This document shows, in pieces, positions 3,859 through 47,401 of a DNA stretch of 57,747 nucleotides (the stretch's first letter is position 1; each line of letters starts with the position of its first letter). A model generated the notes under the pieces. It ran no database searches and was not told the DNA's origin. It saw only the letters and a list, made by a program, of their open reading frames with translations. The position numbers and the translations under genes are program-made. Source of the stretch: a virus (taxonomy: Duplodnaviria > Caudoviricetes); IMG/VR virus record IMGVR_UViG_3300033148_006757, positions 1 to 57,747 of that record; one strand, written 5' to 3'.

Positions 3859-4320
3859 AAAAAGGGTATCCGATTATAAATAGAGCTTAATTATATTTTA
3901 GAAGTTATTTTTGAAGATCTTAGAAAATTAGTTCCTAAAATAGTTTAGAAAGTATTTTAAAACTATTTTAGGAAGTTTATTAGAATTATTCTAAGATTAT
4001 TATATAAATATAGCAATTAAATTCTATAATTAATTCTATAATCTTAGCTAGAGCTAGTATTAATTATTCAATAAAACTCAAAAAACCAGCTTAAAATAGC
4101 TAAAATAAGCTCATATATCGAGTTATTTTATAATTAGAATGGTAATATATGGCTAGAATAATTAATAATAGCTCATACTAGCTTAAAACTAGAATAAATT
4201 AGAAATAACACTCTAGAATTATTGTTGAGCTTGATCAGCTTAATGAAAGAATAAATATATTTTAGAAGTTTCGAAAAACCGTAGGATTTAACCTATCAAT
4301 CTAACCTACAGAAAAACCTC
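3859..4320. repeat. boundary-conserved module B
   Basis: AAAAAGGGTATCCGAT at 3859; GTAGGATTTAACCTATCAATCTAACCTACAGAAAAACCTC at 4281-4320. Confidence 0.8.
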
Positions 4321-4441
4321 CACGGGTTAGTGTTTTATTATTATAGGAATATATTTTGGAAGTGATTTTAATAATATATTATTTAATCACATTATAAATA
4401 TATTTTCACCAATTCCTAAAAATTATATTGCTTATTATAAA

Positions 4442-4633
4442 TTATTTTAATAAGCCGCTTTTATTATGATTTTTTAAATATTTATATTTTTGCCAATTTT
4501 CTTCACTTCCATGCAAAATATTATTATGAGGATTATAAATATAATTTAAAAATCCTCTTAAATTATTTTGATAGTTATGCGCTTTTGCAATTTTTTTATT
4601 TTTATTAACTTTTTTAAATGCTTTATTTCTCAT
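4442..4633 (-). CDS. small basic hypothetical protein
   Basis: 63-aa ORF with AGGAG RBS and TATA cassette at 4685-4722. Confidence 0.45.
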   Translation of the reverse strand: MRNKAFKKVNKNKKIAKAHNYQNNLRGFLNYIYNPHNNILHGSEENWQKYKYLKNHNKSGLLK

Positions 4634-4684
4634 ATTAAATTTCTCCTAAAGTTATATATAATATTATTATTTAATATTATATAA

Positions 4685-4998
4685 TATATAATAGCCTTAA
4701 TACTATATAAAGCTTTCTATTTAATATTATATTATATAACTATTAATCATTATATATAACTATCAAAAAAATTATCTACTTTTATAACCTTCTAAATTTA
4801 TTTGCATTTCTAAATCTAAATAACTATCAAAAATTCCATCTATATAAAAATCTTTATACACTTTTAACTCTCTAAATAATTCACTTCCTAATTCAAAAAT
4901 TTCCATTTAATACACTTCCTAAATTTATTTATTTACTAATTTTAATTAAATTCTCAATACTATATAATAACCTTAATCCTATATATACCTTTCTATTT
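4685..4998 (-). promoter_or_regulatory. duplicated 38-bp promoter cassette (4685-4722 and 4961-4998)
   Basis: TATATAATAGCCTTAATACTATATAAAGCTTTCTATTT vs TATATAATAACCTTAATCCTATATATACCTTTCTATTT (4 mismatches); each precedes a minus-strand small ORF. Confidence 0.7.
4772..4906 (-). CDS. small acidic hypothetical protein (44 aa)
   Basis: Manually translated MEIFELGSELFRELKVYKDFYIDGIFDSYLDLEMQINLEGYKSR; AGGAAGTG upstream. Confidence 0.45.
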   Translation of the reverse strand: MEIFELGSELFRELKVYKDFYIDGIFDSYLDLEMQINLEGYKSR

Positions 4999-5729
4999 GC
5001 ATTTTTATAATTATAATAATCATAATATATTAATATTAATATAAACTCTCAATTATAAATTTAAATTTAATATCAATATAACTCTATTAATATAATACCA
5101 CAGCTATGCTATTATTAAATAATAATTATAACATTATAATTATATATCTTAAATTATAATACTATTAATTATATACTCATTAAATATATTAATTATAATA
5201 ATAACTTATAAAAAATATCTATACTATTATAATTAATATATAACTTTATAATTATATATACACACTATATATATAATAATAATATAACTTTATATATATA
5301 TTAATGCATATATAATCACATAATGATATAAATAATAATATAATAATATATATATAATAATCATATAACTTTATAAAAAAATATATATACTCTATCTAAA
5401 TATATTAATAATAAATATAACTTAATAAAATACTTTATATATATAACTTTTCAAAAAATCATAACTCCCCCCTCCCCTTTTTTATACAGCGGGTGGCTCA
5501 TTTTACACATATATCATATTTTCCGTATTCTCCGGCGCGGTCCAAAAAATTTTCTGTAAAAAATTTTCAAGTATAAGGGTGTGGTCCTAAGTTTAATAAA
5601 AACCTTAATAATAACTCAATTATAACATTCATACAAACATCTATATATAATAAAACACCCATATCTACTAGTATCTTAGTTATTAATTTACCAAAAAATC
5701 CGATAACAACTCAATAGGGAGGGATTATA

Positions 5730-5864
5730 ATACCATTTGCAGATTACGAAGACTTCGATGAATGCGTGAGGAAAAATCAGGATAAGAAAGATCCAGAAGC
5801 ATATTGTGCTGAGATTGAAAGGCAAGCGGGAAGAGTCTTTAAAGAGGAGAGAAAGGGGTTCTAA
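5730..5864 (+). CDS. small Cys-containing protein, probable ATA start
   Basis: (M)PFADYEDFDECVRKNQDKKDPEAYCAEIERQ... behind GGGAGG; resembles a short MPF..Y..F..CV..N......AYC motif I recall from head-tail virus head modules. Confidence 0.55.
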   Translation: MPFADYEDFDECVRKNQDKKDPEAYCAEIERQAGRVFKEERKGF

Positions 5865-6012
5865 GAATTTAATATAATCCCTAGGGGAGGCCCGTTTCCG
5901 TATAATGAAAAAAGCTCTTAATTACTTAGCGAAGTTATATACCACACGCTTATGATATTCATAAATACCATTAGATAGACACTTATATATACATAGGAAT
6001 CAATATAGGAGT

Positions 6013-6201
6013 ATGAATAAAATTAATACCAAGAATAATCCCAAATTCCTCCCCCTAAATAGTGAATCTAATTATCAGGGCGCCATGATGAAGCAGATGG
6101 AACGGATAGAAGATAGGGTAGATGGAATTGGAGTATTGATTCTGATCCATATGGTGGTTGTAATCATGGGGATTATAGGGATTATGATAGTCGCCCAGTA
6201 G
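6013..6201 (+). CDS. small coiled-coil plus C-terminal TM protein
   Basis: AGGAG RBS; hydrophobic C-terminus. Confidence 0.6.
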   Translation: MNKINTKNNPKFLPLNSESNYQGAMMKQMERIEDRVDGIGVLILIHMVVVIMGIIGIMIVAQ

Positions 6202-6253
6202 GGTTATAATATAAATATGGATATAAATATAGACGGACTAGGAGAGGATCAGA

Positions 6254-7270
6254 ATAGTATATCAGAGCATACCAGAGGATTACTATACATTTGATGCATC
6301 TCTTAAACAGATAACCCTCCTAGTACCATATGATTCTGTAGAGCTTGGGCAGATACAGAGTATCCGGAATCTTACTACTTATGAGGTTTTATTCGACTCC
6401 TGGCTAAATGATGAGCTTATCAGTCTAAGCGGAGGGGTTATTACTCATACACATGTGAGTAGTAATCAAGCTCAGAAAGATACCGATAAATTACAGATCT
6501 TTATAGATGCCGGGAGTATGCCGGATATTCCTATTTTAACTCAGGAACATCGTACCTCTGTCTCTGAAGGAGATATTCATAAGACGGATGTATGTATAGG
6601 GTCTAATAATGCTATCGGGGCCGGCCCTTTTGTGATTTTATCAAATTGTGATGCGGTTCAGCCATCAGCAGGTGTTCAGATGCAATTTGTATCAACCAGT
6701 GGAGAAGATGCTCTTTTAGGAAGCGGAGTACAGAAGATGAAACTCTACTATTTCGCCGAGAGTCCTTGGGAGCTTAAGAATGAAGTGGTTGAAATGGATG
6801 GTACTACTCCAGTTAATACGGATGCTACAGATATTTATAGAATCCATAAGGTTGAAGCTTCTAAAGGGCATCCAGCGGTTGGAACTATTACTATAAAATC
6901 TACCGATACTGTCACACTATATGCTCAGATAGACCCCTATACCACCTTTTTCCAGCGGGCTATATTTTATGTCGAGACTGGATATCAGGCTATGGTTACG
7001 GATATAATCCTGGGATGTTCTACTAATGGAGGAGTTAAATGGCGGCTTTTCAAATCTTTTGAAGATGAAGATACTGGAGAAGTTGTCACTAGGGGGAGGT
7101 TAAGTGTTAGTGTAGCGGATGATGCTATACATATACCCCTTGGAATAGGAGTGAAAGTATCTAACCCGAATGGGAAGAGAATTGCGATTGGGTTGGCGGT
7201 CCAGGGGGCTGTGGCTAATCAAGAAGGGATTGGAACCATGAGGGGATATTGTAAGAAAATAGGTGCGTAA
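6254..7270 (+). CDS. putative virion structural protein (start extended from GTG 6455 to ATA 6254)
   Basis: Frame is open from 6242; GGAGAGG precedes ATA 6254; beta-rich, contains EVVEMDGTTPVNT. Confidence 0.6.
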   Translation: MVYQSIPEDYYTFDASLKQITLLVPYDSVELGQIQSIRNLTTYEVLFDSWLNDELISLSGGVITHTHVSSNQAQKDTDKLQIFIDAGSMPDIPILTQEHRTSVSEGDIHKTDVCIGSNNAIGAGPFVILSNCDAVQPSAGVQMQFVSTSGEDALLGSGVQKMKLYYFAESPWELKNEVVEMDGTTPVNTDATDIYRIHKVEASKGHPAVGTITIKSTDTVTLYAQIDPYTTFFQRAIFYVETGYQAMVTDIILGCSTNGGVKWRLFKSFEDEDTGEVVTRGRLSVSVADDAIHIPLGIGVKVSNPNGKRIAIGLAVQGAVANQEGIGTMRGYCKKIGA

Positions 7271-8728: not shown

Positions 8729-8788
8729 GTGTGTATAGTGACTGACTACTACATTAAGAATGTCTCCAGTGAAGGAATGGTATAATAA

Positions 8789-10198
8789 ATGTCTGATTTA
8801 GTGGTTTCTGCAGATGGTCATTATATAAAAACTCCAGAGGGAGATCCTTTTTTCTGGGTTAGCGAATGCATTTGGTATCTTGTTCAGAAACTTAATCGAG
8901 CAGATGTGGAATATTTGCTTGATCGACTCGCAGGCATAACAGATCCGGAACTTGGGTGCACAAACGTTATCAAAACGACTATCATTTTTCGAGATGCAGG
9001 AGATGTAGAGAATCCGACGAATGCAAATGGTCATCAGGCGTTTAACGGTGGCACGGTTCCGGATTTTGCAGATCCAAAGGTAGTGGCTGGCGGAACTCCT
9101 GATGCACCGAACGATTATTGGGATCATCTGGATTTTATAGTAAGAGAGACTGCTGCACGTGGGATGTATATTACACTTAATCCCCAATGGTCGAGAGCTT
9201 ATGTACGTGGTCAAAATTCTACAACTCCGATTTCAATTGCTGATGCCAGGTCATATGCTGAGTTTTTGGGTGATCGATATAAAGATGCGACTAATGTGAT
9301 ATGGTTGATTGGTGGAGACGGGAATGATTTAGATTTTGAAACTTATCGTGCAGTATACGAAGCTCAAGCAGAAGGAATCCTCAAAGGCGTAACTGAATGT
9401 ACATCGTGTCCGGTACATGATGAAGCAAGCGCTTTATGGGACGAAGTTACGATGACCTACCATGGGGATTTCAACAGTATGGCCTCAGACTGTTGGGATA
9501 TTAACGAAAAGTGGGCTAATATCGACGGTGCTTATGCTGGAAGGTTTTATTTTGTAACCCCCGCATTCAATTTAGCAAACCCCAGACCAATAGTAGAAAC
9601 AGAAGGATACGGATACTGGTCGTCTACGACTGAGCAATTGCAAGCGATGAGGTTTCATCATTATACCCATATTCTGTCTGGTGGGCGTGGTGCAGAGTAT
9701 ATGAATGAATATATCTGGGATTTTACCGGATCGTGGAAAGATCTGCTTTCGCTTGAGATCAGAAAATACATTACGATATGGAAGGATGCTATAGATTCAG
9801 TAGCGTGGCACAACTTAATTCCCGATCAAGGAATAATTTTATCTGCTAATACGTTTAGTGAGGCAGATTTTAAGAAGACTATTGTAGCGTCGAGATCTTC
9901 TGATGAAGATTTAATTATGGTATTCTATGGTGGGTTAAGTTCTGGATCGGCTCAAGTCGATCTAGGGGATATCACTAACCCCTATGCCAAAGGGTACTGG
10001 ATTAACCCAATGGATGGTGACGTGATGGATGCCGGGACTTATGAGACAACCGAGAACCCAACTTTGGTGATGCCGGGAAGTTGGGAAGATGCGCTACTGA
10101 AACTAGTAGGGACAGAGGGAGATATTCCATATGTTCGTTATAGAGGTATCAATCGACCGAAGCCAAGATTTAATAATGGCGGCAGGAGATTCCAATGA
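8789..10198 (+). CDS. DUF4038/apiosidase-like (GH140-like) glycoside hydrolase with C-terminal beta domain
   Basis: Motifs VSADGHY..GDPFFW, YWDHLDFIV, LGDRYKD..NVIWLIGGD, PIVETEGY, WINPMDG, WEDALL. Confidence 0.75.
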   Translation: MSDLVVSADGHYIKTPEGDPFFWVSECIWYLVQKLNRADVEYLLDRLAGITDPELGCTNVIKTTIIFRDAGDVENPTNANGHQAFNGGTVPDFADPKVVAGGTPDAPNDYWDHLDFIVRETAARGMYITLNPQWSRAYVRGQNSTTPISIADARSYAEFLGDRYKDATNVIWLIGGDGNDLDFETYRAVYEAQAEGILKGVTECTSCPVHDEASALWDEVTMTYHGDFNSMASDCWDINEKWANIDGAYAGRFYFVTPAFNLANPRPIVETEGYGYWSSTTEQLQAMRFHHYTHILSGGRGAEYMNEYIWDFTGSWKDLLSLEIRKYITIWKDAIDSVAWHNLIPDQGIILSANTFSEADFKKTIVASRSSDEDLIMVFYGGLSSGSAQVDLGDITNPYAKGYWINPMDGDVMDAGTYETTENPTLVMPGSWEDALLKLVGTEGDIPYVRYRGINRPKPRFNNGGRRFQ

Positions 10199-18363: not shown

Positions 18364-19266
18364 ATGGCAGGCGGACACCCCCTCACAGAACAGCAGATGA
18401 CATATTATGATAACGTCGTACAGGATGTTATCAGACAGGAGATAGTAGGGAGGAATCTCATAGCTATTGCCACAGGTAGTCCATTCGGATTCGGAGTTCA
18501 AAAGATCGACTTCAACGCATTAGTCGATATGAGTGCTGCTGAACTCAGTATGACACTCACTGAGAATGCCGATATGATCGGACTGACCAACGATAGTCTA
18601 CCCATCCCCATACTTCACAAGGAATGGGAGATTGGAAGGAGAGATCTTGCATCTAGTAAGCGAACTGGTATGCCTCTCGATACAGTGGGTCCTGAAACTG
18701 CTGCCTCTAAAGTAGCGGAATTGGAAGACTCTCTCATCATCGATGGATGGAGTGCTGATGGTACGAATTATGACTTCAATGGACTCTATCAGAGTGCCGG
18801 GAATGATTATTCTACCAGTAAGGACTTCGGAACAGCCGGGAATGCCATAGTAGCAGTAAAGGGCGGAATCGCTCTCTTACTGGCGGATCATATCAAGCCC
18901 CCATATAATATAACTCTGAACCAAGTTCAGTATGGGGAGATATTGGGTCCCAGAGCTACCACTAGCGATAAGACCGAATTATCTATCATCCGGGACATGC
19001 TCCGTGGTGGAGATGGTGCAGGTGAGACTACTCCATTCGGACCTAATGCTGGAGGGAACATATTTGTAACAGATGTCATGACAGCTGGTACCGCTCTGAT
19101 CAGTGCAACTCCTAATACGAGATATGCTGATCTGGCTATCGGCCTGGATGTCGCAACTGAATACGAATTCTTGCCAAAGAGTCGGAATGCATTCGGCAGG
19201 GTATTTGAATGCATGATCCCCAGGATCAAAGAACCAAACGCCTTCTGCAAACTATCCGCGATATAG
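18364..19266 (+). CDS. major capsid protein, HK97 fold, encapsulin/Linocin_M18-like
   Basis: VGRNLI, GFGVQ, PIPILHKEWEIGRRDL, PLD...AASKVAELEDSLIIDG, PRIKEPNAFCKL. Confidence 0.85.
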   Translation: MAGGHPLTEQQMTYYDNVVQDVIRQEIVGRNLIAIATGSPFGFGVQKIDFNALVDMSAAELSMTLTENADMIGLTNDSLPIPILHKEWEIGRRDLASSKRTGMPLDTVGPETAASKVAELEDSLIIDGWSADGTNYDFNGLYQSAGNDYSTSKDFGTAGNAIVAVKGGIALLLADHIKPPYNITLNQVQYGEILGPRATTSDKTELSIIRDMLRGGDGAGETTPFGPNAGGNIFVTDVMTAGTALISATPNTRYADLAIGLDVATEYEFLPKSRNAFGRVFECMIPRIKEPNAFCKLSAI

Positions 19267-24073: not shown

Positions 24074-26557
24074 ATGGCCCTAGTAGATTTATTGGTAAGA
24101 GTTCGTGCGGATATAGGGAGAGCCACAGCCGGATTAATGGCGGTGGATAATCTTTCTAAAAAAGTAGAAACTGCTATGACCCGTAATATGCGATCTATCC
24201 GTCGAGCGGTTAATGGGGTGGTAGCCTCTTTCGTAAAATTTGCTGCTATCCTGGGGATAATCTCTCTTATAGTATTGGCAAAAGCGGTCTCTAGCTTCGC
24301 TAAATTTGAACAATCAATTGTTAATGCTACTTCGGTTACTGGAAAACTAGGTGAAGAGTTTATAGTAGTTAAAGATCATTTATCTGCTCTAGCTCAAACC
24401 CTGGGTAAAACAACGGTATTCTCTGCTGGAGAAGCCGCTCAAGCTATGTATGATCTAGCTTCTGCTGGGGTAGAAGTCGGTAGAATGACGAAAGAAGATA
24501 TGATACCGATCCTCGATCTGGCTGCTGCTACCCAGTCTGAATTAAAATTTGCAACAGAAACATTAACTTCTACTATAGCCCAGTTCGGATTAAGTATTAC
24601 AGATACGGAGAGAGTATCCGATGTACTAACCGGTACAATCACTTCCACTAAAGCTACTATCGAAAAAATGTCAATCGCTCTGGCATATGTCGGTCCTATT
24701 GCTCATGGGACCGGTCTGAGTCTTGAAGAAACGTCAGCCGCTTTAGGTATGTTATATAATGCTGGTCTTCCTGCTAGTATGGCTGGTACGGCCCTAAGAG
24801 GGGCCCTTCTGAGATTAATGAATCCAACTGCCGCTGCTAGAGATACTCTAAAAAGTATGGGGTTAACATTACAAGATGTAGATCCTACTTTACATAAATT
24901 TGCAGATATTGTTAAGATCCTAGGAGAAAGGCAGATGACTACTGCAGAATCTGCTATCATATTTGGAGTTAGAGCAGCATCTGGAATGGTAGCACTCGCC
25001 GGAGCATCAGATAAATTAGAAGTCCTCACCGAGAAATTACATAATGTTCAGGGATTAACAAGAGAGATTGCTGAAGTCCAATTGAGTACCCTTAGTGGTT
25101 CTTTCGTCTTACTCAAATCCGCTCTAGAAGGATTAATGATATCCATAGGAAGTGCGACTGAGGGAGGAATGAAAAACTTTAGTTCAGAACTAAGAAACAT
25201 CGTTCTGGCTATAGAAGAGCCCTTGATGAATGCCGTAGCTAATTTAATGTCATTCTTAGATCAACTAGGTCCTACATGGGAAAGTCTTAAATCTATAGTC
25301 TCTAGTGTTATTGGCATAATGGGGGATCTGGCGGAAATATTCGGAATAGCTGGAGAAGAGGGAGCCAATAGATTGGCAAATGCTATAAATTTATTAGCTA
25401 CCTCTTTCGCCGGTTTATTAAGATGGATAGACGAACATCCTAGTGTTACTAAATTTGTTGCAGCCTTAGGGGTCGGAATACTTATATTTATTAATTTGGT
25501 CGGTGTGATAATACCTGTAATAGTCGCGCTAGCGGCTTTAAAAACTGCTATAATAGGGGTAGGGGTCTCGATGGCCTTTGGTATGTCTCTGACGTCCGCT
25601 TTAACAGCAGCATTTCCAGCTCTCGGAGCCGCCATAGGCGTATTAACTGGTCCTATAGGCTGGGTTATATTAGCTATTAGTCTATTCGGAGCAGCCTATG
25701 CCACAAATTTCTTGGGTATCAGAGATATCACCCATAAGGTTGTCAGCTGGCTAATAGATAGATTTTATGATCTGGTGAATGGGATCGGATTTGTAATGTG
25801 GCATGTGAAAAAGCTGATAGTAGAGGAATGGAACGCTTTAGTCCCTATGATGAAGAAGTTAGGAATGGATGTAGTAAAATATCAGATATCGGCTTTTGAG
25901 TTATTGGAGCGTAAAGCTAAAGATACATCTGAGATAGTTCAAGATGAGATGGGAGATATGGGAACCTCTGTAGCTGATACTCTTGAAGACTTACAAGGTG
26001 ATTTGGCCATCGCCCAAATAGATCTAGAAGACTATGCCGATACTATGAATGAGTTTGAAGCAGCTCCTACTAGAATGGGTGGGGGAGATATTGATGAGTT
26101 CTTTAAGGCACGGGGAGGCTTCATTTCAGGAGAAGGGGAATATATCGGTAAAGGTCATCCTGATTGGGAAGCATTGACAGCTAAAGCGGGTGCTCCTATA
26201 GATGAAACAATTTACGGTAAGATAGATGGAGATAGTAGATTAACGGCTAATATGGCACTAGGAGGAGGAGAGCGGGCTTTCAGGGCTATTATGGATTCTA
26301 ATACCGTACAGGAAGAACAGAATCAGAAGTTAGATAAGTTGGAACACCTTCAGAAATTACCAGAAATTTCTGAAAAATTAGATAAGTTAGGAATTGAGAT
26401 AAATAACTATACCACGAATACTTATACTAATAGAAGTAGTAGTAGCAGTACCAGAGCAGGTACTATCAGTCCAGCCCCTAGCTTAATAAATGATACCAAA
26501 GACAGTAAATCCGTTAGCAAGGGGCTGAGAGATTATAGTAACCCATTCGGATTCTAA
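24074..26557 (+). CDS. tape measure protein (TP901-like core)
   Basis: LGKTTVFSAGEAAQAMYDLASAG, LDLAAA, ASMAGTALRG, IFGVRA, LSGSFVLLKSALEG; Ala/Gly-rich helices. Confidence 0.92.
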   Translation: MALVDLLVRVRADIGRATAGLMAVDNLSKKVETAMTRNMRSIRRAVNGVVASFVKFAAILGIISLIVLAKAVSSFAKFEQSIVNATSVTGKLGEEFIVVKDHLSALAQTLGKTTVFSAGEAAQAMYDLASAGVEVGRMTKEDMIPILDLAAATQSELKFATETLTSTIAQFGLSITDTERVSDVLTGTITSTKATIEKMSIALAYVGPIAHGTGLSLEETSAALGMLYNAGLPASMAGTALRGALLRLMNPTAAARDTLKSMGLTLQDVDPTLHKFADIVKILGERQMTTAESAIIFGVRAASGMVALAGASDKLEVLTEKLHNVQGLTREIAEVQLSTLSGSFVLLKSALEGLMISIGSATEGGMKNFSSELRNIVLAIEEPLMNAVANLMSFLDQLGPTWESLKSIVSSVIGIMGDLAEIFGIAGEEGANRLANAINLLATSFAGLLRWIDEHPSVTKFVAALGVGILIFINLVGVIIPVIVALAALKTAIIGVGVSMAFGMSLTSALTAAFPALGAAIGVLTGPIGWVILAISLFGAAYATNFLGIRDITHKVVSWLIDRFYDLVNGIGFVMWHVKKLIVEEWNALVPMMKKLGMDVVKYQISAFELLERKAKDTSEIVQDEMGDMGTSVADTLEDLQGDLAIAQIDLEDYADTMNEFEAAPTRMGGGDIDEFFKARGGFISGEGEYIGKGHPDWEALTAKAGAPIDETIYGKIDGDSRLTANMALGGGERAFRAIMDSNTVQEEQNQKLDKLEHLQKLPEISEKLDKLGIEINNYTTNTYTNRSSSSSTRAGTISPAPSLINDTKDSKSVSKGLRDYSNPFGF

Positions 26558-40055: not shown

Positions 40056-40295
40056 ATGAGAGGAAGAAAAAGCGAGAGAAAAGGACTGTTATTACGGATA
40101 TACTGGAACCTTCGAGTTTCGATGGAAGTAGAGGAAATAATAGAAGTACTCAAATCTAATCCGAGTTTTGAAGACCCGGACGAAAGTACTAAAGACGTAG
40201 AGATAAAGAGAAAGATAGTTCATTTAACTAGGGCAATGGATTCAGTACTGACTATGGGAAAAGAGGAGGCTATACCATTCGAGGACCATAGATGA
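40056..40295 (+). CDS. hypothetical protein
   Basis: ORF with GGAGG upstream; stop overlaps next start. Confidence 0.55.
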   Translation: MRGRKSERKGLLLRIYWNLRVSMEVEEIIEVLKSNPSFEDPDESTKDVEIKRKIVHLTRAMDSVLTMGKEEAIPFEDHR

Positions 40296-41071
40296 ACCCC
40301 CAGCTAACTGAATTCGGAATATTCTCCGGGAATAATTTGGATAAGGTCTATAAAGAGGCTATGACCAAGATCCTGAAGGATGGGTCGGATTTAACCTTCG
40401 GAGATAAAGATGAGGTTAAAGAAGCCAGGGAGATATTCGGTATCATGCATCTCTATGGAAATGCTCTTAAAGATGTCCTGAAGGGGAAGACTCCAAAAGG
40501 ATTTAAATATACGGGATCACAAGTAAGAGCTCTTATGGATACGTTTGTAGCCAATGCTATTAATCCTACGGGCTTTGAGTATACCTATCCTGAGATATTG
40601 AGAAATCAACCAGCACAGGGAATGATAAATAGAGAGAAACATACTAACATGGACCAGATCGTCCTATCTCAGAATTTATTGAGAACGGATATAATGGATA
40701 GGATAAAGAGCAATCGAAATGTCGGATGGATCGGTAATCCTGGCTTCACTTATAGTAGGGATAAACCTTGTTTTAACTGGTATCAACTACGCTATATGGG
40801 TCACAGAAAGACCGTATTGGGTAAAGAAATTCCGATGGTGTCATTCAGAATGCTATTTCGATCCCATGATTGGGGAGATGCCGTAATGGGCAATGCTTCT
40901 TCAATAGGGCATGGGTTTAATGAACTAGTAATAAAGCCCCTAGGGGGAGAGATGCTAGAGATGATCATAATATCTTCCTCTGCTCACATATATGAGAAAG
41001 AATCCCAGATGTGTGAAGAGGTCTTCGGGATACCTTATAAGAGATCGAAAGAAGGGAGGGGGATTTCATAG
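40292..41071 (+). CDS. thyA: thymidylate synthase, archaeal type (dUMP-type Asn)
   Basis: GFEYTY, KPCF (catalytic Cys), FRSHDWGDAVMGN (Asn at the E. coli N177-equivalent position), SAHIYE. Confidence 0.75.
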   Translation: MNPQLTEFGIFSGNNLDKVYKEAMTKILKDGSDLTFGDKDEVKEAREIFGIMHLYGNALKDVLKGKTPKGFKYTGSQVRALMDTFVANAINPTGFEYTYPEILRNQPAQGMINREKHTNMDQIVLSQNLLRTDIMDRIKSNRNVGWIGNPGFTYSRDKPCFNWYQLRYMGHRKTVLGKEIPMVSFRMLFRSHDWGDAVMGNASSIGHGFNELVIKPLGGEMLEMIIISSSAHIYEKESQMCEEVFGIPYKRSKEGRGIS

Positions 41072-41249: not shown

Positions 41250-42143
41250 TTGAAAGAAACTTTAAGACCAAAGACTCTAGAGAAGTTCCGAGGTCATGAA
41301 GATATAAAAAAATCAGTCAATAATCTACTTGAATCAGACAGCCGACAGGATATAATTCTATTCGGTCCGCCTGGAACTGGTAAAACCACATTGGCTCGAA
41401 TCATCGGCTATCATTACTACGAAGAGAGTTATGAAGTAGCCATGATGGATCTAAATGCCAGTGATGAAAATGGAGTAGATGTTATTCGAACTCGGGTAGC
41501 GAATAAAGCTCGGGCTAGAAGTATGGAATCCGGAAAACCACAGATTATATTCCTGGATGAAGCAGATGCATTAACCCCTCAGGCTCAGATGGCTTTGAGG
41601 AGAACCATGGAGGATAATGATGCTAATTGTATTTTTATATTAGCAACTAACAACCTAAATGCTATTATAGAACCGATACAATCGCGTTGTAGTGCTCATA
41701 TATATCATTTAGATAGATTAGAAGACTCTGAAATTCATCTATTACTCAATGATATAGCTAAGAAAATGCAAGTAAGTAGTCCAGATATACCTTATCTAGA
41801 TATCATTAAGAAAGCAAATGGTGATGCTAGATCTTGCGTCGATCTATTTGAGAGCTGGATGAATGGGTCGGATACAAAAAAGAATACTGAGTCATTAGTG
41901 GAGCTATTAGAGCTATTAGATAGTGATGAGGAGATCGAAACCTATCCTCTCTTAGCATATATAGAAGCTAAGGATCTAACGGCCTTAAGTATGCTGATAT
42001 TAGGGAGTAATGTGTATTCCTTATCGGAGAAGACCACACTGAACAGAATAATTGCTGCATGTGACTTCAGAATTCAGAGGAGCCATAACCCCGATATACA
42101 TTTGATAGATATGCTTAATAGAATCTGGAAGGAGATCAGATAA
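41250..42143 (+). CDS. rfcS: clamp loader (replication factor C small subunit-like)
   Basis: LRPKTL, GPPGTGKTT, LNASDENG, FLDEAD, AQMALRR, IQSRC, GDAR. Confidence 0.92.
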   Translation: MKETLRPKTLEKFRGHEDIKKSVNNLLESDSRQDIILFGPPGTGKTTLARIIGYHYYEESYEVAMMDLNASDENGVDVIRTRVANKARARSMESGKPQIIFLDEADALTPQAQMALRRTMEDNDANCIFILATNNLNAIIEPIQSRCSAHIYHLDRLEDSEIHLLLNDIAKKMQVSSPDIPYLDIIKKANGDARSCVDLFESWMNGSDTKKNTESLVELLELLDSDEEIETYPLLAYIEAKDLTALSMLILGSNVYSLSEKTTLNRIIAACDFRIQRSHNPDIHLIDMLNRIWKEIR

Positions 42144-42961
42144 TGACAGGGGAATTCCAGATCAGAGCGGGATTATTGGCCAATCATATGAAAAGAGCCT
42201 CTTTCTGTACTGATATCAGGGATATAATCCTGGAGATAAACGAAGGAGTAATGAAAACCGGAGCTGTTGGGGCGGCTAATGATAGAATAGCAATCATCCG
42301 AACTTCTCTCGAAAACCCGGAGGAGAGTTTCGATACTTTAGGGATTCCTAACATCTATAAGGTTATCGATAAGATCGGTAATTTCCGACCGGAGGATATG
42401 ATATGGTTGAAGATTGATGAAAATAATCAGATGAAAGTCATTAGGACTAAGCCTAAGAAAACTTACACTATATCGACTGTGGAGGACATCACCCAGATAC
42501 GATCGAAGTCGGTTTATGATATATGGCCCGATGCAGAGAAGATGGAGATGTGTTTGAAAGTAGGAGATAAGCCCACTCAGAAGGCCGGTAATATAAAAGC
42601 TATTCTGAGGATACCGAATTTATCTGAGGCCCAGAAATTATTCAAAAACAAGGATGTTTTCACAGATGAAGTGGAGCTGACTGTTTTCCCTGAGGGCAAT
42701 ATAGAAATCATGGGACGGGACGAAGATGATATAGGGGGAGATTTTTTTGAGGTTGAACCGATATTTAAACCTGAGAGAAAAATGTCCTCGGGGTATAGTG
42801 GATTGATTGAAGTAATGAAAGCACTCAACCCGAAGGCGGATATCACTATGTATATTGGAGATGGAACTATGTCTCTGATGATAGTGGAGAAGTATGATAC
42901 CCCCGAAGAGTCATATGAGAGCATATATATTGTGATGCCTAGAATACTGAGATGGAGGTAA
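42143..42961 (+). CDS. putative sliding clamp (PCNA-like)
   Basis: Adjacent to RFC; ~270 aa; C-terminal YIVMPRI resembles the PCNA terminal strand. Confidence 0.6.
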   Translation: MTGEFQIRAGLLANHMKRASFCTDIRDIILEINEGVMKTGAVGAANDRIAIIRTSLENPEESFDTLGIPNIYKVIDKIGNFRPEDMIWLKIDENNQMKVIRTKPKKTYTISTVEDITQIRSKSVYDIWPDAEKMEMCLKVGDKPTQKAGNIKAILRIPNLSEAQKLFKNKDVFTDEVELTVFPEGNIEIMGRDEDDIGGDFFEVEPIFKPERKMSSGYSGLIEVMKALNPKADITMYIGDGTMSLMIVEKYDTPEESYESIYIVMPRILRWR

Positions 42962-42968
42962 TAATAAG

Positions 42969-43715
42969 ATGGAAATAGAATCATATAATGAGCATCAAGG
43001 ATGGAGAGCAGAGAATTTGAATGGATTAATCCAGAGGATACATAATACTCTGGATCAGCAGGGGAGGGAAGCTTATATAGGCGGAGTCGTAAGTTTATCT
43101 AATGTAACTTTCAAGATCCAGAAGAATCGGTACTCTAATGCTATGATGGATGCCAATGTGGTAGAGCGGGATGGAGAAAGAGGATTAAACTTTCTAAAAC
43201 AGGAGTTCAAAGAATGGGTTGCAGAAGAGTATCATAATCCAGGTCAAGCCTGGAAGGAATATCCTGAGAGATGGAGATCATTCCTGAACGCCAAAGATAG
43301 AGTGGATTATTCATATAATGAAAGAATCCAGGGATGTAGTCAGCTAGAGAATGTTATTAAAACTCTAGCAAAAACCCCATACACCAGACAGGCCTATATT
43401 GAGATATATCGGGCTCCGATAGATTCATATAGGATGGGAGAGGATGATAGAATGGTTCCATGTATCCTGGGATATCATTTCACTCAAATCGGTCAAGATC
43501 TGAATATGACTGTGATGGCCCGATCTATCGATGCTAATAACTGTCTGATGAATGATATGTGGCTGGCCGATAGATTATTAAACTATATCGTGGAAATGAT
43601 CAACCGGAAATTAGAATATGCCGCTTCTAAGAAGATAAGCGAGGGCTCTATCACTTTCATGATCAGTAACCTACATTCATATCCAGATATCGTTCAGAAG
43701 GAGACGATAAGATGA
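42969..43715 (+). CDS. ThyA-superfamily enzyme, dCMP hydroxymethylase-like (Asp at specificity site)
   Basis: YSYNERI, TRQAY, VPCI, RSIDANNCLMND (compare T4 gp42 RSNDVVFGFRND), NLHSY. Confidence 0.75.
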   Translation: MEIESYNEHQGWRAENLNGLIQRIHNTLDQQGREAYIGGVVSLSNVTFKIQKNRYSNAMMDANVVERDGERGLNFLKQEFKEWVAEEYHNPGQAWKEYPERWRSFLNAKDRVDYSYNERIQGCSQLENVIKTLAKTPYTRQAYIEIYRAPIDSYRMGEDDRMVPCILGYHFTQIGQDLNMTVMARSIDANNCLMNDMWLADRLLNYIVEMINRKLEYAASKKISEGSITFMISNLHSYPDIVQKETIR

Positions 43716-44692
43716 CCAGAGATGATGAAATAAACGATTTAAGAAAAGCTATGGGCACTATGCCTAATGAGAATCTTGAACCGAATACCATGTTCTATAT
43801 AGGAGTTAACGGCATAACGGTTGAGATGGTAGAGTGTCCGGAGAATCCCTATAGAGCTATATTCGAAGCAAGTGTGGCTACTTGGGGAGATGAAAGATAT
43901 GGCACTAAATGGGGTGAGGTTAGTCCGGAGAACCGTTTCAAAGTAGTTAAGGCAGCCTTATCAGGACAGACTCTTCCGCAAGCATTGGAGCCGGTTAATT
44001 TCATGTTTATTGTGAGAGGAGCCAGTAGAGCTCAGTTTGATCAACATGCCAGGCAAAGAATAGGCGCTACCTTCTTCAGTCAAGGGGTTAGAGATAACTC
44101 TAGAGCAGATGCAGGTTTTAGGGTCCCTACCGATCTCATAGAAATGGAAGATAGAAACCTGAGTGACCGAGTACTTGAGCATATAGCAAAGGGTAAAGAG
44201 TTATATAGCGAAATCCTGGGAAATGGAAAAGGCTCTTATCAATCAGCCAGGGCAATACTCCCTATGGGTATGACTCACAACTATAAGTATGCTGCTAACT
44301 TACAGGCTATTAAAGGCTATATGGCTCAAAGACTCCAGGCATGTGAGCAGGAAGATACTGTCTTCGTAGCTATATCCATAAGAAAAGCTATAGAGGAAAA
44401 ATTCCCACTAATAGCCAGTCACCTGAAGCCGGGATGCGATTATGCCAAAAGATGTACATATCATCAATCATACACCCTGAGTGAGATGTTCGGATGCTTG
44501 TTTGCAGGATGTGGAAGATGGCCGGATGAGAATGAATACTCTACCTTTAATGGGAGCTGTAGTAATTATAGGACTATGGCGGAACAAGGAGGTATTCAGT
44601 TACGTTCCCCGACATTTTGGCGAGAATATGATACCTTTGGAAGCTTGGATGTAGAAGATAGGATGTTGTTTGAGGCCTCATATGAGTTCTAA
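43712..44692 (+). CDS. ThyX-fold flavoprotein with non-canonical active site
   Basis: ALEPVNFMF, SRAQFDQHARQR, QSARAILP, YMAQRL; RHR is RQR, the SxRY motif is GVRD; Cys-rich C-terminus. Confidence 0.75.
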   Translation: MTRDDEINDLRKAMGTMPNENLEPNTMFYIGVNGITVEMVECPENPYRAIFEASVATWGDERYGTKWGEVSPENRFKVVKAALSGQTLPQALEPVNFMFIVRGASRAQFDQHARQRIGATFFSQGVRDNSRADAGFRVPTDLIEMEDRNLSDRVLEHIAKGKELYSEILGNGKGSYQSARAILPMGMTHNYKYAANLQAIKGYMAQRLQACEQEDTVFVAISIRKAIEEKFPLIASHLKPGCDYAKRCTYHQSYTLSEMFGCLFAGCGRWPDENEYSTFNGSCSNYRTMAEQGGIQLRSPTFWREYDTFGSLDVEDRMLFEASYEF

Positions 44693-45668
44693 TACAGTAA
44701 TTCTAGGAAATGGATTATCCGCCCTGATATGGGCGGCTTATCATCCTAATTCTGTCATAATCGGACCCGGAAAACCAGGAGGAATGGCTAAAGATATGAA
44801 AGCTCCCTTTTTCCTGCATAAACATCCGGCTACCGAAAGGTTATTGAAGGAATTAGGATTAAGTACTTGTACCAGGGAAGTGAAGGTAGGATATGCCTAT
44901 AGCAGTACCGTAGGAACTTATATCCGGGATGAACCTCCTAAAGGTTTCCGAGATAGTTATTATAGGCATAGCAGATGTTTATATACTGGGTGTTCAGATT
45001 CGGTACCTAATTCTGTAATGAATCAGGGGGCAGAGAGATTTGAAGCTTATAAAATAACCCCGGATACCTTGATCAATCAACTGATAGAAGCGGTAATATC
45101 AATCGGAGGTGTGTTTTATAGGGATATTCTTAGAAAGATAGTAGTGGATAGAGAGGTAATAGGTGTATATGGTGATAGAATGAATGCTCTATATAAAGAA
45201 GTAATATCCACCATACCTATAAACATTTTTCAATCGCTCTTACCGGAGCAGGAATATAAGAGAATATATCAGGATGATAGCCTCACTAAAATATTTCTGG
45301 AAGCCAAGGAACAAGATCCATGTACGAGGGGATATGATTTCGTATATTTATGCCCCCACCAGAAACATCCGATCTTCCATTTGTTCGCCTCCCATATAAC
45401 CCGGATGAATAATAACCACGTCACAAAGAAAACTTTTTTTGAGTATACTTTCGTAGCAGGGGCTCCGATCATCGATGAAGCTATGAAACAGTTAACAGAA
45501 ATTTATGGAGAAGACCGAGTATCTTTACACCCGGAGATATCAGTTAGAAGAGATGTAGAATGGAAAAAATACCATGGCATAAAATTCCTTGGAAGGGGTG
45601 CTCAATGGGATCATTCGATTAAGGTTCAAGATGTGGTTATGGAGGCTCAGAAACATGCAGAGCAATAA
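44682..45668 (+). CDS. FAD-dependent enzyme, UDP-galactopyranose mutase / amine oxidase superfamily-like
   Basis: Rossmann VILGNGLSA...KPGG, VISTIP, C-terminal IKFLGRGAQW; start placed at second ATG behind GAGG. Confidence 0.65.
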   Translation: MSSNTVILGNGLSALIWAAYHPNSVIIGPGKPGGMAKDMKAPFFLHKHPATERLLKELGLSTCTREVKVGYAYSSTVGTYIRDEPPKGFRDSYYRHSRCLYTGCSDSVPNSVMNQGAERFEAYKITPDTLINQLIEAVISIGGVFYRDILRKIVVDREVIGVYGDRMNALYKEVISTIPINIFQSLLPEQEYKRIYQDDSLTKIFLEAKEQDPCTRGYDFVYLCPHQKHPIFHLFASHITRMNNNHVTKKTFFEYTFVAGAPIIDEAMKQLTEIYGEDRVSLHPEISVRRDVEWKKYHGIKFLGRGAQWDHSIKVQDVVMEAQKHAEQ

Positions 45669-46254
45669 ATGGGAAGTGGAGAAGGAGAAAAAAATATGTT
45701 ACTTCGATATAGACGGGGTTTTGAATGATTATCCGGAGTGTTGGTTAAGATTTCTACGGGAAAAATGGGATAGAACAGAGCTCCCTGATAGAAAAATCAG
45801 GGATTTGAATTATGTTAAAGAACAGGTTCCCTATCAGTTGTATAGGAACTCTAAATGGGAATATCGAGAAAGTGGCTATAAAACCACCATCCCCCCCACT
45901 ACTAGTGCTTCCGAATTGACCTATAATCTGCATCAGATGAGATACCATATAGTTATAATAACCGCTAGACCTGTGAAAGAGCACCCATCTTTATTCAAAC
46001 AGACTGTAGACTGGCTGCAGAAAAATAGCATCGAATTTGATGATCTTATATTCGATGGGGATAAACATATTGCAGTATTGAAAAGGTATCCTCATTTGAA
46101 ATTCGGGGTAGAAGATCACAGATATTATGCTAACCTAGTAGCCTCTTGGGGGTATCATATGTATCTTTTAGACAGTAAATACAATCAAGGTGAGATTCAT
46201 AAAAACGTCACCAGAATAAAGAGCTTGGTCGAGATATTAGAACAATCTATATAA
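45655..46254 (+). CDS. HAD-family phosphatase (5'(3')-deoxyribonucleotidase-like)
   Basis: FDIDGVL, IITAR, DK, VEDH; start ATG 45655 behind GGAGG. Confidence 0.8.
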   Translation: MQSNKWEVEKEKKICYFDIDGVLNDYPECWLRFLREKWDRTELPDRKIRDLNYVKEQVPYQLYRNSKWEYRESGYKTTIPPTTSASELTYNLHQMRYHIVIITARPVKEHPSLFKQTVDWLQKNSIEFDDLIFDGDKHIAVLKRYPHLKFGVEDHRYYANLVASWGYHMYLLDSKYNQGEIHKNVTRIKSLVEILEQSI

Positions 46255-46298: not shown

Positions 46299-46766
46299 AT
46301 GAATAGTCAGATAAAACCAGACCTTGTGATATTAGAAGGACCCGATAAAGCTGGTAAATCAACCATATATCAGGCCTTCCGAAGAGCTACATACTATCAA
46401 CCACTTATTATCGACCGATTTATCGGTAGTAATATAGTATATGATCAACTACACGATCGTCTAGATAAACATACAGCCCACTATAATATGGAAGTGCGTC
46501 TGAAGGATATTTTTAATCCTTTGGTAGTATATTTGTGGGCCCCGGACCACGTATTAATGAGAAGAAGTGATATGGCCGGGGACTTAGATGAAGAGAGGGA
46601 GGATATAGAAGGCATCCATAAGTACTACGAGGAATACTTAAGACTCACGCCCTTAGAGATCCTTACTATAGATACCAGTATCATTCCCGTGGACGAAGTG
46701 GTAAAGACGATAAAATGGACATTAAGTCATAGACAAAATGAGGTAAGAAACCAATGGTCAGCGTAA
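46299..46766 (+). CDS. P-loop nucleoside monophosphate kinase (thymidylate kinase-like)
   Basis: ILEGPDKAGKST, IIDRFIGSNIVY, LTIDT. Confidence 0.8.
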   Translation: MNSQIKPDLVILEGPDKAGKSTIYQAFRRATYYQPLIIDRFIGSNIVYDQLHDRLDKHTAHYNMEVRLKDIFNPLVVYLWAPDHVLMRRSDMAGDLDEEREDIEGIHKYYEEYLRLTPLEILTIDTSIIPVDEVVKTIKWTLSHRQNEVRNQWSA

Positions 46767-47401
46767 TAACAAAATCCCTTGGGAATAAGATATTTGAAGT
46801 AACCCAGTTCGGGAAGGATCGAAAGAATGGGACTCGGGAGTCTCTTAACCAGATAATGATCTTAGAATTCCCGACCCAGAAAGGTATCATTAATTCAAAT
46901 ACTAGAGAGACTGGTATAAACCTATTAATAGAGGAAATGGAATGTAAACATCTCTATGCTTCCAAGCTCGGTAAGAATTGGGATCAGAAGAACCTGGAAG
47001 AATATCATCATTACGGATTCTTAACCCATGCCCTATTACATAAAATTAACTCCGTAAAATACTTTAACGGAGAGGGCATAGATTCCAGAAAACTGATAAT
47101 ATTCTCGGACGACTGCATATCGACCATACAGTTAATAGTTAGGGAAGAGGAAGTAGGACTGTATGTACATATGAGGAGTTCTGATGCTATAAATCTATTA
47201 CCACTAGATGTAATGGCTTTGACCAATCTATTGGACAACGTTATGATGACTCATAGATTATCGGGTGAAGATAGGAGAGTAATGATCCATATAACATTCG
47301 GGTCTCTTCACATATATTCAGATGATCTGAAAATAGCCAAAGAAGTAGGAGTAAGTACCTCAGGAGAGAAGTATAATGAAACCAGCAGACGTTATTTGTG
47401 A
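46754..47401 (+). CDS. divergent ThyA-superfamily enzyme (Asp at specificity site)
   Basis: SRKLII, DDCISTIQ, MRSSDAINLLPLD, GSLHIY. Confidence 0.7.
   Translation: MVSVITKSLGNKIFEVTQFGKDRKNGTRESLNQIMILEFPTQKGIINSNTRETGINLLIEEMECKHLYASKLGKNWDQKNLEEYHHYGFLTHALLHKINSVKYFNGEGIDSRKLIIFSDDCISTIQLIVREEEVGLYVHMRSSDAINLLPLDVMALTNLLDNVMMTHRLSGEDRRVMIHITFGSLHIYSDDLKIAKEVGVSTSGEKYNETSRRYL

Follow-up and report, generated by a model that had tools for sequence, protein, structure and literature searches.

What does a protein with the fold of a flavin-dependent thymidylate synthase (ThyX) do once the residues regarded as catalytic in that enzyme have been replaced? The question is raised by X, a gene of a tailed virus that lies on the plus strand at 43712..44692 of the window, the whole stretch of DNA analysed here, which is an entire linear IMG/VR virus record (IMGVR_UViG_3300033148_006757; 57,747 bases, estimated completeness 66%). 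X is an open reading frame (ORF) of 326 amino acids coding for a ThyX-fold protein of a divergent viral clade. We propose, with a probability of about one half, that it is an active, neofunctionalised flavoenzyme of pre-replicative pyrimidine-nucleotide tailoring, and not a housekeeping thymidylate synthase. An initial annotation of this DNA had already called X repurposed, for example as a flavin-dependent enzyme that hydroxylates or reduces a pyrimidine nucleotide or a sugar. The repurposing is partly supported, by a clade with its own invariant residues, by the presence of a canonical ThyX in 7 and of a ThyA in 1 of 31 carriers, and by the tie of X to a flavoprotein and to nucleotide enzymes; the chemistry that was named is one option among several.

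The ThyX fold is borne out by profiles, model and structural comparison. X passes the Pfam Thy1 family (PF02511) with 48.9 bits (cut-off 24.8, E 8.5e-13; 50.5 bits in a six-frame search), and it reaches 36.1 bits against the NCBIfam thyX equivalog (TIGR02170), below the cut-off of 87.9. As a single sequence it barely matches the solved ThyX chains (E 0.3). The alignment-based AlphaFold2 (AF2) model of X has a pLDDT of 95 and a pTM of 0.93, and the Foldseek listing obtained with it is full of solved ThyX chains, with 156 matches at E<=0.001; T. maritima ThyX comes first (TM by target 0.75), and the best matches are the T. maritima and M. tuberculosis enzymes (E ~2e-10, TM by target 0.64-0.76). 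With canonical ThyX/FDTS (T. maritima TM0449, M. tuberculosis ThyX) X thus shares the fold, the network of arginines and two further motifs, ARxxLP and R(207). Unlike the canonical enzyme, it carries about 30 additional N-terminal and about 95 additional C-terminal residues, the latter with four cysteines, it lacks the folate-stacking His, the His of RHR, the motif Ser and the Tyr, and it has gained the acids D110, D128 and E212.

Residue equivalences were taken from two sources: a profile built on 31 members of the family and set against M. tuberculosis ThyX (E 2e-11), and a MAFFT alignment with the canonical ThyX paralogs of related phage loci (L018:5299-5925 and L010:13442-14146). Conservation was counted in a 112-row alignment, of which 95 rows are the family proper. 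Because these two alignments fix the equivalences, the reading that the initial annotation had made by eye of positions 44051..44095 proves right: at residues 114-128 the canonical RHRx7S and R-Y motif is replaced by RQRIGATFFSQGVRD (R114, R116, G125, R127, D128), which reads RQRIG...G.RD. The RHR has become R-x-R with an inserted Gly, the motif Ser is G125, and RY is R127-D128, which amounts to His to Gln, Ser to Gly and Tyr to Asp. The three changes are conserved throughout the clade.

The other motif claims hold as well. The N-terminal H..PFEH indeed appears as LPQALEP (residues 88-94, 43973..43993), in which E93 is invariant and the His next to this Glu in canonical ThyX is lost; LEH becomes LE[P/A/T] in the X family, position 94 being P, A, S, T or G in the 95 family rows. 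SRAQFDQ is kept at residues 105-111, as is ARAILP at residues 179-184 (44246..44263) with its invariant nucleotide-phosphate Arg, R180. QRL (residues 206-208) opens the element QRLQACEQED (residues 206-215, 44327..44356), where the invariant R207 is the equivalent of the substrate-polarising Arg of ThyX; four residues further on, the His of the canonical K-H-A-Q-W-E is replaced by C211, and the invariant new acid E212 follows. E93, R116, R180 and R207 are invariant across all 112 rows. Within the 95 family rows R114 is found in 93, R116 in 95, R127 in 87, R180 in 95 and R207 in 95, next to D110 (92), Q111 (94), S123 (83), G125 (93), D128 (92), N129 (89) and E212 (94). For T. maritima ThyX the comparison also uses the residue numbers H79, R80 and R147.

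The lost residues matter in the canonical enzyme. In T. maritima ThyX, both the folate pterin and the reduced flavin are stacked by H53, which also forms a hydrogen bond with Y91; S88 forms a hydrogen bond with the flavin O4, and mutation of Y91 slows flavin oxidation 1000-fold (PMC11940539, from which the numbering H53, N85, E86, S88, R90, Y91 and R78 is taken). H53, S88, R90, Y91 and R174 are also named in the titles of matched PDB entries. The equivalents of H53, S88 and Y91 are all lost in X according to the alignments.

The Cys-rich tail noticed initially is a conserved C-terminal extension, whose first part with C242, C248, C267 and C283 spans 44429..44560. The four cysteines are conserved in 78-90 of the 95 family rows (C242 in 90, C248 in 89, C267 in 89 and C283 in 78), and C242, C248 and C267 are lost jointly in 5 of them; such joint replacement of the first three is as expected for one metal site. 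The extension is absent in the canonical ThyX paralogs of L018 and L010.

X is not a decayed or one-off gene, but one member of a conserved clade found almost solely in viruses. An exhaustive phmmer search against 1.84 billion representatives recovered 293 proteins at E<=1e-3, of which 112 reached <=1e-10 and 46 reached <=1e-30. These 46 best relatives are mostly full-length (~315-360 amino acids), the others being intein-bearing long forms or fragments. Of 1358 candidates from a word-index search, 185 reached E<=1e-10. In a quick IQ-TREE phylogeny of 58 selected rows, drawn without intein-bearing forms and fragments and rooted at the midpoint, all 24 X-family rows form a single clade (SH-aLRT 99), which lies within a wider group of divergent ThyX-like proteins, and the canonical ThyX paralogs of the same phages stand on the opposite side of the root. 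An IMG/VR scan gave 79 viral X loci. One genome per prokaryote species, searched with a single peptide pattern that cannot prove absence from cells, gave 3 X loci, all on contigs of metagenome-assembled genomes. Among the cultured phages of INPHARED there is no member of the X family, the best match (26% identity over 70% of the query) being a canonical-motif ThyX of a Desulfovibrio phage, and our literature search found no paper on the family.

Furthermore, inteins were recognised by sequence reading in seven X-family proteins, at five distinct insertion points that all lie within conserved motifs, which fits functionally critical sites. They stand before C211 (P0004, P0009 and L095, at L095:17750-19195), after residue 123, the Ser of the F-x-S element (P0011), at G125 (P0037), after RDN (P0027) and within the F-D-Q element (P0050). 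Hint or intein Pfam domains are present in all seven, and several include LAGLIDADG or HNH-type endonuclease parts. Pfam searches on 10 long ThyX-like members returned Thy1, homing-endonuclease parts and one weak GT2 match, and no informative fusion. In marine-type loci X can also be found as two overlapping ORFs (L044:7974-8792 and 8782-9501, and the other such loci of L043-L080), of 272 and 239 amino acids over ~1450 bases; a split gene, a frameshift and a degenerate insertion are all candidate causes.

The neighbours of X are conserved as well. In the window X is the second of six plus-strand genes in the order A2-X-F-H-K-A3, with ends that overlap or nearly abut, and L009 has the same six genes in identical order. 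A2 (42969..43715), the stop of which overlaps the start of X, is a ThyA-like protein (PF00303, 32.2 bits), and F (44670..45668), which overlaps the end of X, is by its model a two-domain flavin adenine dinucleotide (FAD)-fold protein of the UGM/PPOX/amine-oxidase type. Alignment and fold thus agree with the initial placement of X between a dCMP-type (Asp) ThyA and a FAD enzyme. H (45589..46254) is a HAD 5'-nucleotidase of the NT5C type (PF06941, 37.6 bits), which probably begins further downstream than the TTG given in the ORF list; in most loci it has 310-340 amino acids, with an N-terminal all-alpha MazG/dUTPase_2 domain fused to the HAD domain. K (46299..46766) is a thymidylate-kinase-like kinase (PF02223, 36.9 bits), and A3 (46754..47401) a short ThyA-like protein that holds the catalytic Cys. 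K and a short ThyA-like protein (~160-215 amino acids) are fused in 11 of 74 cluster members (for example L007:10951-11832, L018:14942-16009 and L048:6963-7937).

When the 26 window proteins were compared with the 79 X loci by tblastn (E<=1e-5), X was matched in 79, H in 59, F in 31, K in 15 and A3 in 5, and none of the window replication proteins was, except the helicase in 2. Clusters of locus genes were then built from naive ORFs by single-linkage BLAST, with Pfam run on representatives. The X cluster occurs in 76 loci, a UDG-superfamily domain, alone or fused to PolA, in 60, H in 59, K/A3 in 50, F in 48, an SDR epimerase/RmlD-like protein in 37, GroES in 29, GroEL in 28, dCMP deaminase in 18 and GT1 in 14. 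A non-redundant set (at least 6 kb on either side of X, X proteins less than 90% identical) left 33 loci, with H in 33, UDG/PolA in 30, K/A3 in 28, F in 26, SDR in 22 and the deaminase in 11; in these, 109 of 109 F, H and K/A3 genes share the strand of X. The SDR, UDG, GT and deaminase genes of related loci are absent from the window. In 28-29 of the 79 loci, X is immediately followed by GroES and GroEL genes (for example L003:9037-10946).

The AF2 model of F (pLDDT 80) shows a two-domain FAD fold, and in an exhaustive structural search with VIA-align the first match was the UDP-galactopyranose mutase (UGM) 4dsg (Z 21.4, 315 residues aligned, root-mean-square deviation 3.6), followed by protoporphyrinogen oxidase (PPOX) 4ivm (Z 19.4) and the bacterial UGM 3hdq (Z 18.3); Foldseek returned the same mix of UGM and PPOX. 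The window copy matches no Pfam family; among 25 F family members NAD_binding_8 alone is matched, in 12, and GLF in none; and in the ESM Atlas F falls in virus-only clusters adjoining amine-oxidase/PPOX families. The link with X also holds when read from the other side: 28 of 33 newly fetched, F-seeded loci have a ThyX-fold gene within 10 kb, of the X family or of other divergent types, mostly without the His. A prediction of an X-F complex (score 0.00, mark 0.32, controls not run) has no bearing on binding. A search for longer, fused forms of F found none at E<=1e-5, which is weak evidence. In L103:9986-11227, F has 413 amino acids with an apparent C-terminal MazG-like domain, by sequence reading; elsewhere the MazG-like domain is mostly fused to the HAD nucleotidase. 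By tblastn, F has no match at E<=0.01 in 50,697 cultured-phage records, and profile comparison alone found gp68 of Pbunavirus PB1.

Is X then the thymidylate synthase of these viruses? We considered 31 X-bearing viral records, 8 of them at least 90% complete. A second, canonical ThyX (97-235 bits, ORFs of 203-241 amino acids) is present in 7 of them (G005, G006, G007, G008, G010, G015 and G022), and a full ThyA in G031 alone (267 bits); a bona fide synthase thus coexists with X in 8 of the 31 carriers, and in 4 of the 8 with a completeness of 90% or more. Within L018, a single small ORF separates the canonical ThyX from the dCMP deaminase, and X abuts F and H. Among fifteen further records, three with sister-type cassettes (G034, G035 and G036) have two ThyX-fold genes, the divergent copy directly following F. 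The presence of canonical ThyX or ThyA in some carriers makes a plain thymidylate-synthase role for X unlikely.

Several points nevertheless weigh against a new function. G008 and G015 are near-copies, as are G035 and G036, so there are fewer independent cases of duplication than the raw counts suggest. No second thymidylate synthase was detected in 23 of the 31 carriers, most of which are incomplete, nor in 4 of the 8 carriers that are at least 90% complete, and in such viruses X could be the sole thymidylate synthase. X keeps all five arginines needed for ThyX chemistry. Whenever the source name of a relative of X is not 'hypothetical protein', it is a thymidylate synthase label, 'FAD-dependent thymidylate synthase' or 'thymidylate synthase ThyX'. 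Finally, T4 combines a dCTPase, a dCMP-modifying ThyA-like enzyme, a kinase, a deaminase and a thymidylate synthase, and the cassette would, by analogy, also fit this logic, in which a thymidylate synthase is expected.

These points feed the strongest alternative, namely that X is a divergent yet genuine flavin-dependent thymidylate synthase, with other residues doing the job, which provides dTMP for a T4-like replacement of cytosine. The Thy1 score above cut-off, the full set of substrate and FAD arginines and the 23 carriers in which X stands alone all agree with it, as do the dCMP deaminase in 11 of 33 loci, the Asp-type ThyA-like protein with kinase in 28 of 33, and PB1, which has a ThyX-like gene only and no ThyA. 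A synthase would however have to work without the equivalents of H53, S88 and Y91, when mutation of Y91 alone costs 1000-fold (PMC11940539), and X falls under the thyX equivalog cut-off. Moreover, X stands alongside a canonical ThyX or ThyA in 8 of 31 records, sometimes within 2-5 kb, and is tightly linked to an unexplained flavoprotein. Weighing the loss of these three residues and the coexistence with other synthases against the carriers with X only and the likeness to T4, we consider a plain synthase possible though doubtful, and a new function to stand at about even odds.

For the neofunctionalised enzyme that we favour, the following picture can be drawn. X keeps the arginine network (R114, R116, R127, R180 and R207) that holds FAD and the pyrimidine deoxynucleotide in ThyX, has replaced the His/Tyr/Ser trio that serves to stack the folate, to gate the reduced flavin and to speed methylene transfer, and has gained the acids D110, D128 and E212 and the four-Cys C-terminal domain. 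We infer that X binds FAD and a nucleotide and is catalytic. It would act in the same-strand cassette beside the viral DNA polymerase, together with F, H, K and an Asp-type mini-ThyA-like protein. Reduced flavin on X may install or process a non-methyl C5 substituent on a pyrimidine deoxynucleoside monophosphate (dNMP), dUMP or dCMP; K would phosphorylate the product for incorporation into DNA, and H would drain a competing canonical nucleotide. The swapped catalytic residues, the four-Cys tail and the company of a second flavoprotein and of nucleotide enzymes all point to an unusual DNA building block, which X probably makes.

ThyX is a target for drugs and a classic example of unusual flavin chemistry. 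If our reading is true, a large, almost purely viral, intein-targeted branch of ThyX that lacks the His/Tyr/Ser trio and coexists with canonical ThyX would mean that a second reaction can take place on this fold. Which restriction and defence systems a phage evades depends on the hypermodification of its DNA. A defined and widespread cassette would give a direct handle on a new modified nucleotide and on its enzymes.

A bolder scheme would make X and F a two-flavoprotein system. Flavin-N5 iminium chemistry is used by ThyX with a one-carbon unit and by UGM with a sugar carbon, and the pair might use it, ahead of replication, to attach a carbon unit other than a folate-derived methyl at C5 of a pyrimidine dNMP; the unit could come from formaldehyde without reduction, or from a sugar-derived aldehyde. 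We regard this scheme as improbable, but were it true, pyrimidines would be hypermodified before replication in a way that forms a class of its own, and the scheme might also supply the first biosynthetic step that is missing for the polyol- or pentose-bearing thymidines of Pbunaviruses, phages that are used in phage therapy.

The comparison with Pbunavirus rests on PB1, in which a single block holds gp68, gp61 and the polymerase gp57, with gp61 and gp68 upstream of the DNA polymerase. PB1 gp61, annotated as FAD-dependent thymidylate synthase, resembles the X profile (hhalign 98%, E 1.8e-13) and, like X, lacks the His and has C-terminal Cys, and gp68 resembles the F profile (hhalign 96.9%, E 1.6e-10). 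Both are distant relatives only, and gp61 sits on a long, unreliable branch of the quick tree. PB1 gave no ThyA-family match at E<=0.1 and has no K/A3 module. PB1 gp59, considered as a homologue of H, was rejected (no relation by BLASTP, hhalign 0.4%). In the DNA of phages F8 and 14-1 about one quarter of the thymidines are replaced, in a TG motif, by the 362 U and 390 U nucleosides, described as a tetrose sugar-alcohol derivative and a cyclised aldopentose derivative (Yee et al., PMC12191111). The same authors note an absence of known modification genes in the family, and they name no biosynthetic genes (PMC12191111). By our mass arithmetic 362 and 390 correspond to 5-hydroxymethyl-dU joined to a tetritol or a pentose with the loss of water. 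Specificity for a TG motif suits an enzyme that works at the DNA level, a further point to be set against our reading, and the link between the X/F pair and the Pbunavirus thymidine modification is therefore correlative only. Our literature search found no paper that ties Pbunavirus ThyX to modification, and no published function for PB1 gp61 or gp68.

A second cultured phage, Bacillus phage SP-15 (KT624200), has two ThyX-fold genes, at 5584-6315 and 115669-116910. SP-15 DNA holds dihydroxypentyl-uracil. Its SP15_130 (413 amino acids, very divergent) comes directly after an SDR-type reductase and near a nucleoside 2-deoxyribosyltransferase; it was tried as a relative of X and dropped for want of a match to the X profile (hhalign 2.5%). 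That a ThyX homologue can be recruited for a substrate other than dUMP has a precedent in PolB of polyoxin biosynthesis, a ThyX-type UMP C5-methylase (PMC5003785).

The ThyA-like proteins of the cassette bear on yet another explanation. They were aligned with the canonical ThyA of G031 and read by the residue rules of PMC13326640, by which N177D makes the enzyme specific for dCMP, hydroxymethyl products are associated with an acidic residue at L143, and D169N is the mark of 5-hydroxy-dCMP synthases; the pair D169N and N177D is tied to the flavin- and O2-dependent 5-hydroxy-dCMP (5hodCMP) synthases (Lee et al. 2026, PMC13326640). A2 has Asp at N177, keeps D169 and has Met at L143, and A3 has Asp at N177 and Asp at D169; both window proteins thus show N177D and retain D169, and so depart from the 5hodCMP synthase signature. 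Cassette mini-ThyA-likes frequently carry D169N together with N177D, as in L003, L004, L064 and L048. The partner ThyA-like protein therefore differs between loci and varies while X stays constant. The phage 5-hydroxy-dCMP synthases RB69 gp48 and DLP3 gp80 (PMC13326640) offer a close parallel: they are members of the thymidylate-synthase superfamily in which a flavin serves a new reaction at C5 of a pyrimidine dNMP, they occur together with a dNMP kinase and sugar enzymes, and their signature is shared by many cassette mini-ThyA-likes. They have a ThyA fold, unlike X with its ThyX fold, and the word 'ThyX' is absent from the main text of that paper.

X, or X with F, might then be a redox helper of the NAD(P)H:flavin reductase type that feeds a cassette ThyA-like enzyme of the 5-hydroxy-dCMP synthase type. 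The signature just described in many mini-ThyA-likes and the presence of K/A3 alongside the X family in 28 of 33 loci speak for this. On the other hand, synthase and kinase alone sufficed in E. coli (PMC13326640), the window A2 and A3 retain D169, and most sister-type cassettes consist of F and a ThyX-like gene without K/A3, L106 alone giving a weak K/A3 match (1e-06). The conserved nucleotide-binding arginines would moreover be needless in a mere reductase, and we find such a helper quite unlikely. Least probable is a non-catalytic ThyX mimic, for instance a subunit acting as poison or regulator of the ThyX tetramers of the host, which would account for the loss of residues regarded as catalytic but not for invariant arginines, new invariant acids and inteins targeted to the motifs, and which would poison a coexisting phage-encoded canonical ThyX as well.

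Upstream of the cassette lies A1 (40292..41071, plus strand), a divergent ThyA-like protein (TIGR03283, 52 bits, below cut-off; PF00303, 12.9 bits). It has Asn at the E. coli N177 position, so the genome does hold a further, Asn-type ThyA-like gene as initially noted; together with its Asp at L143, this pattern suggests a dUMP hydroxymethylase and not a thymidylate synthase. No relatives of A1 were found in the 79 X loci, and PDB sequence searches with A1 and A2 gave nothing useful.

The remainder of the window fits a tailed virus, with a tape-measure protein (24074-26557) and an HK97-type capsid protein (Linocin_M18, 18364-19266). Its replication and nucleotide genes code for an AEP-type primase, a DEAD_2 helicase, a dCTP-deaminase-like protein, an RFC-like AAA+ protein, a family B polymerase, NrdD, NrdG and a dNMP kinase. 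The 272-residue protein at 42143-42961, immediately after the RFC-like AAA+ gene and without match in Pfam or PHROG, is from its position a candidate sliding clamp. Upstream of the virion genes, positions 8789-10198 code for an apiosidase-like glycoside hydrolase with a collagen-binding-type domain (PF13204, 121 bits). Positions 4001-6000 hold no ORF of at least 100 amino acids and have a G+C content of just 0.21, against ~0.40 elsewhere.

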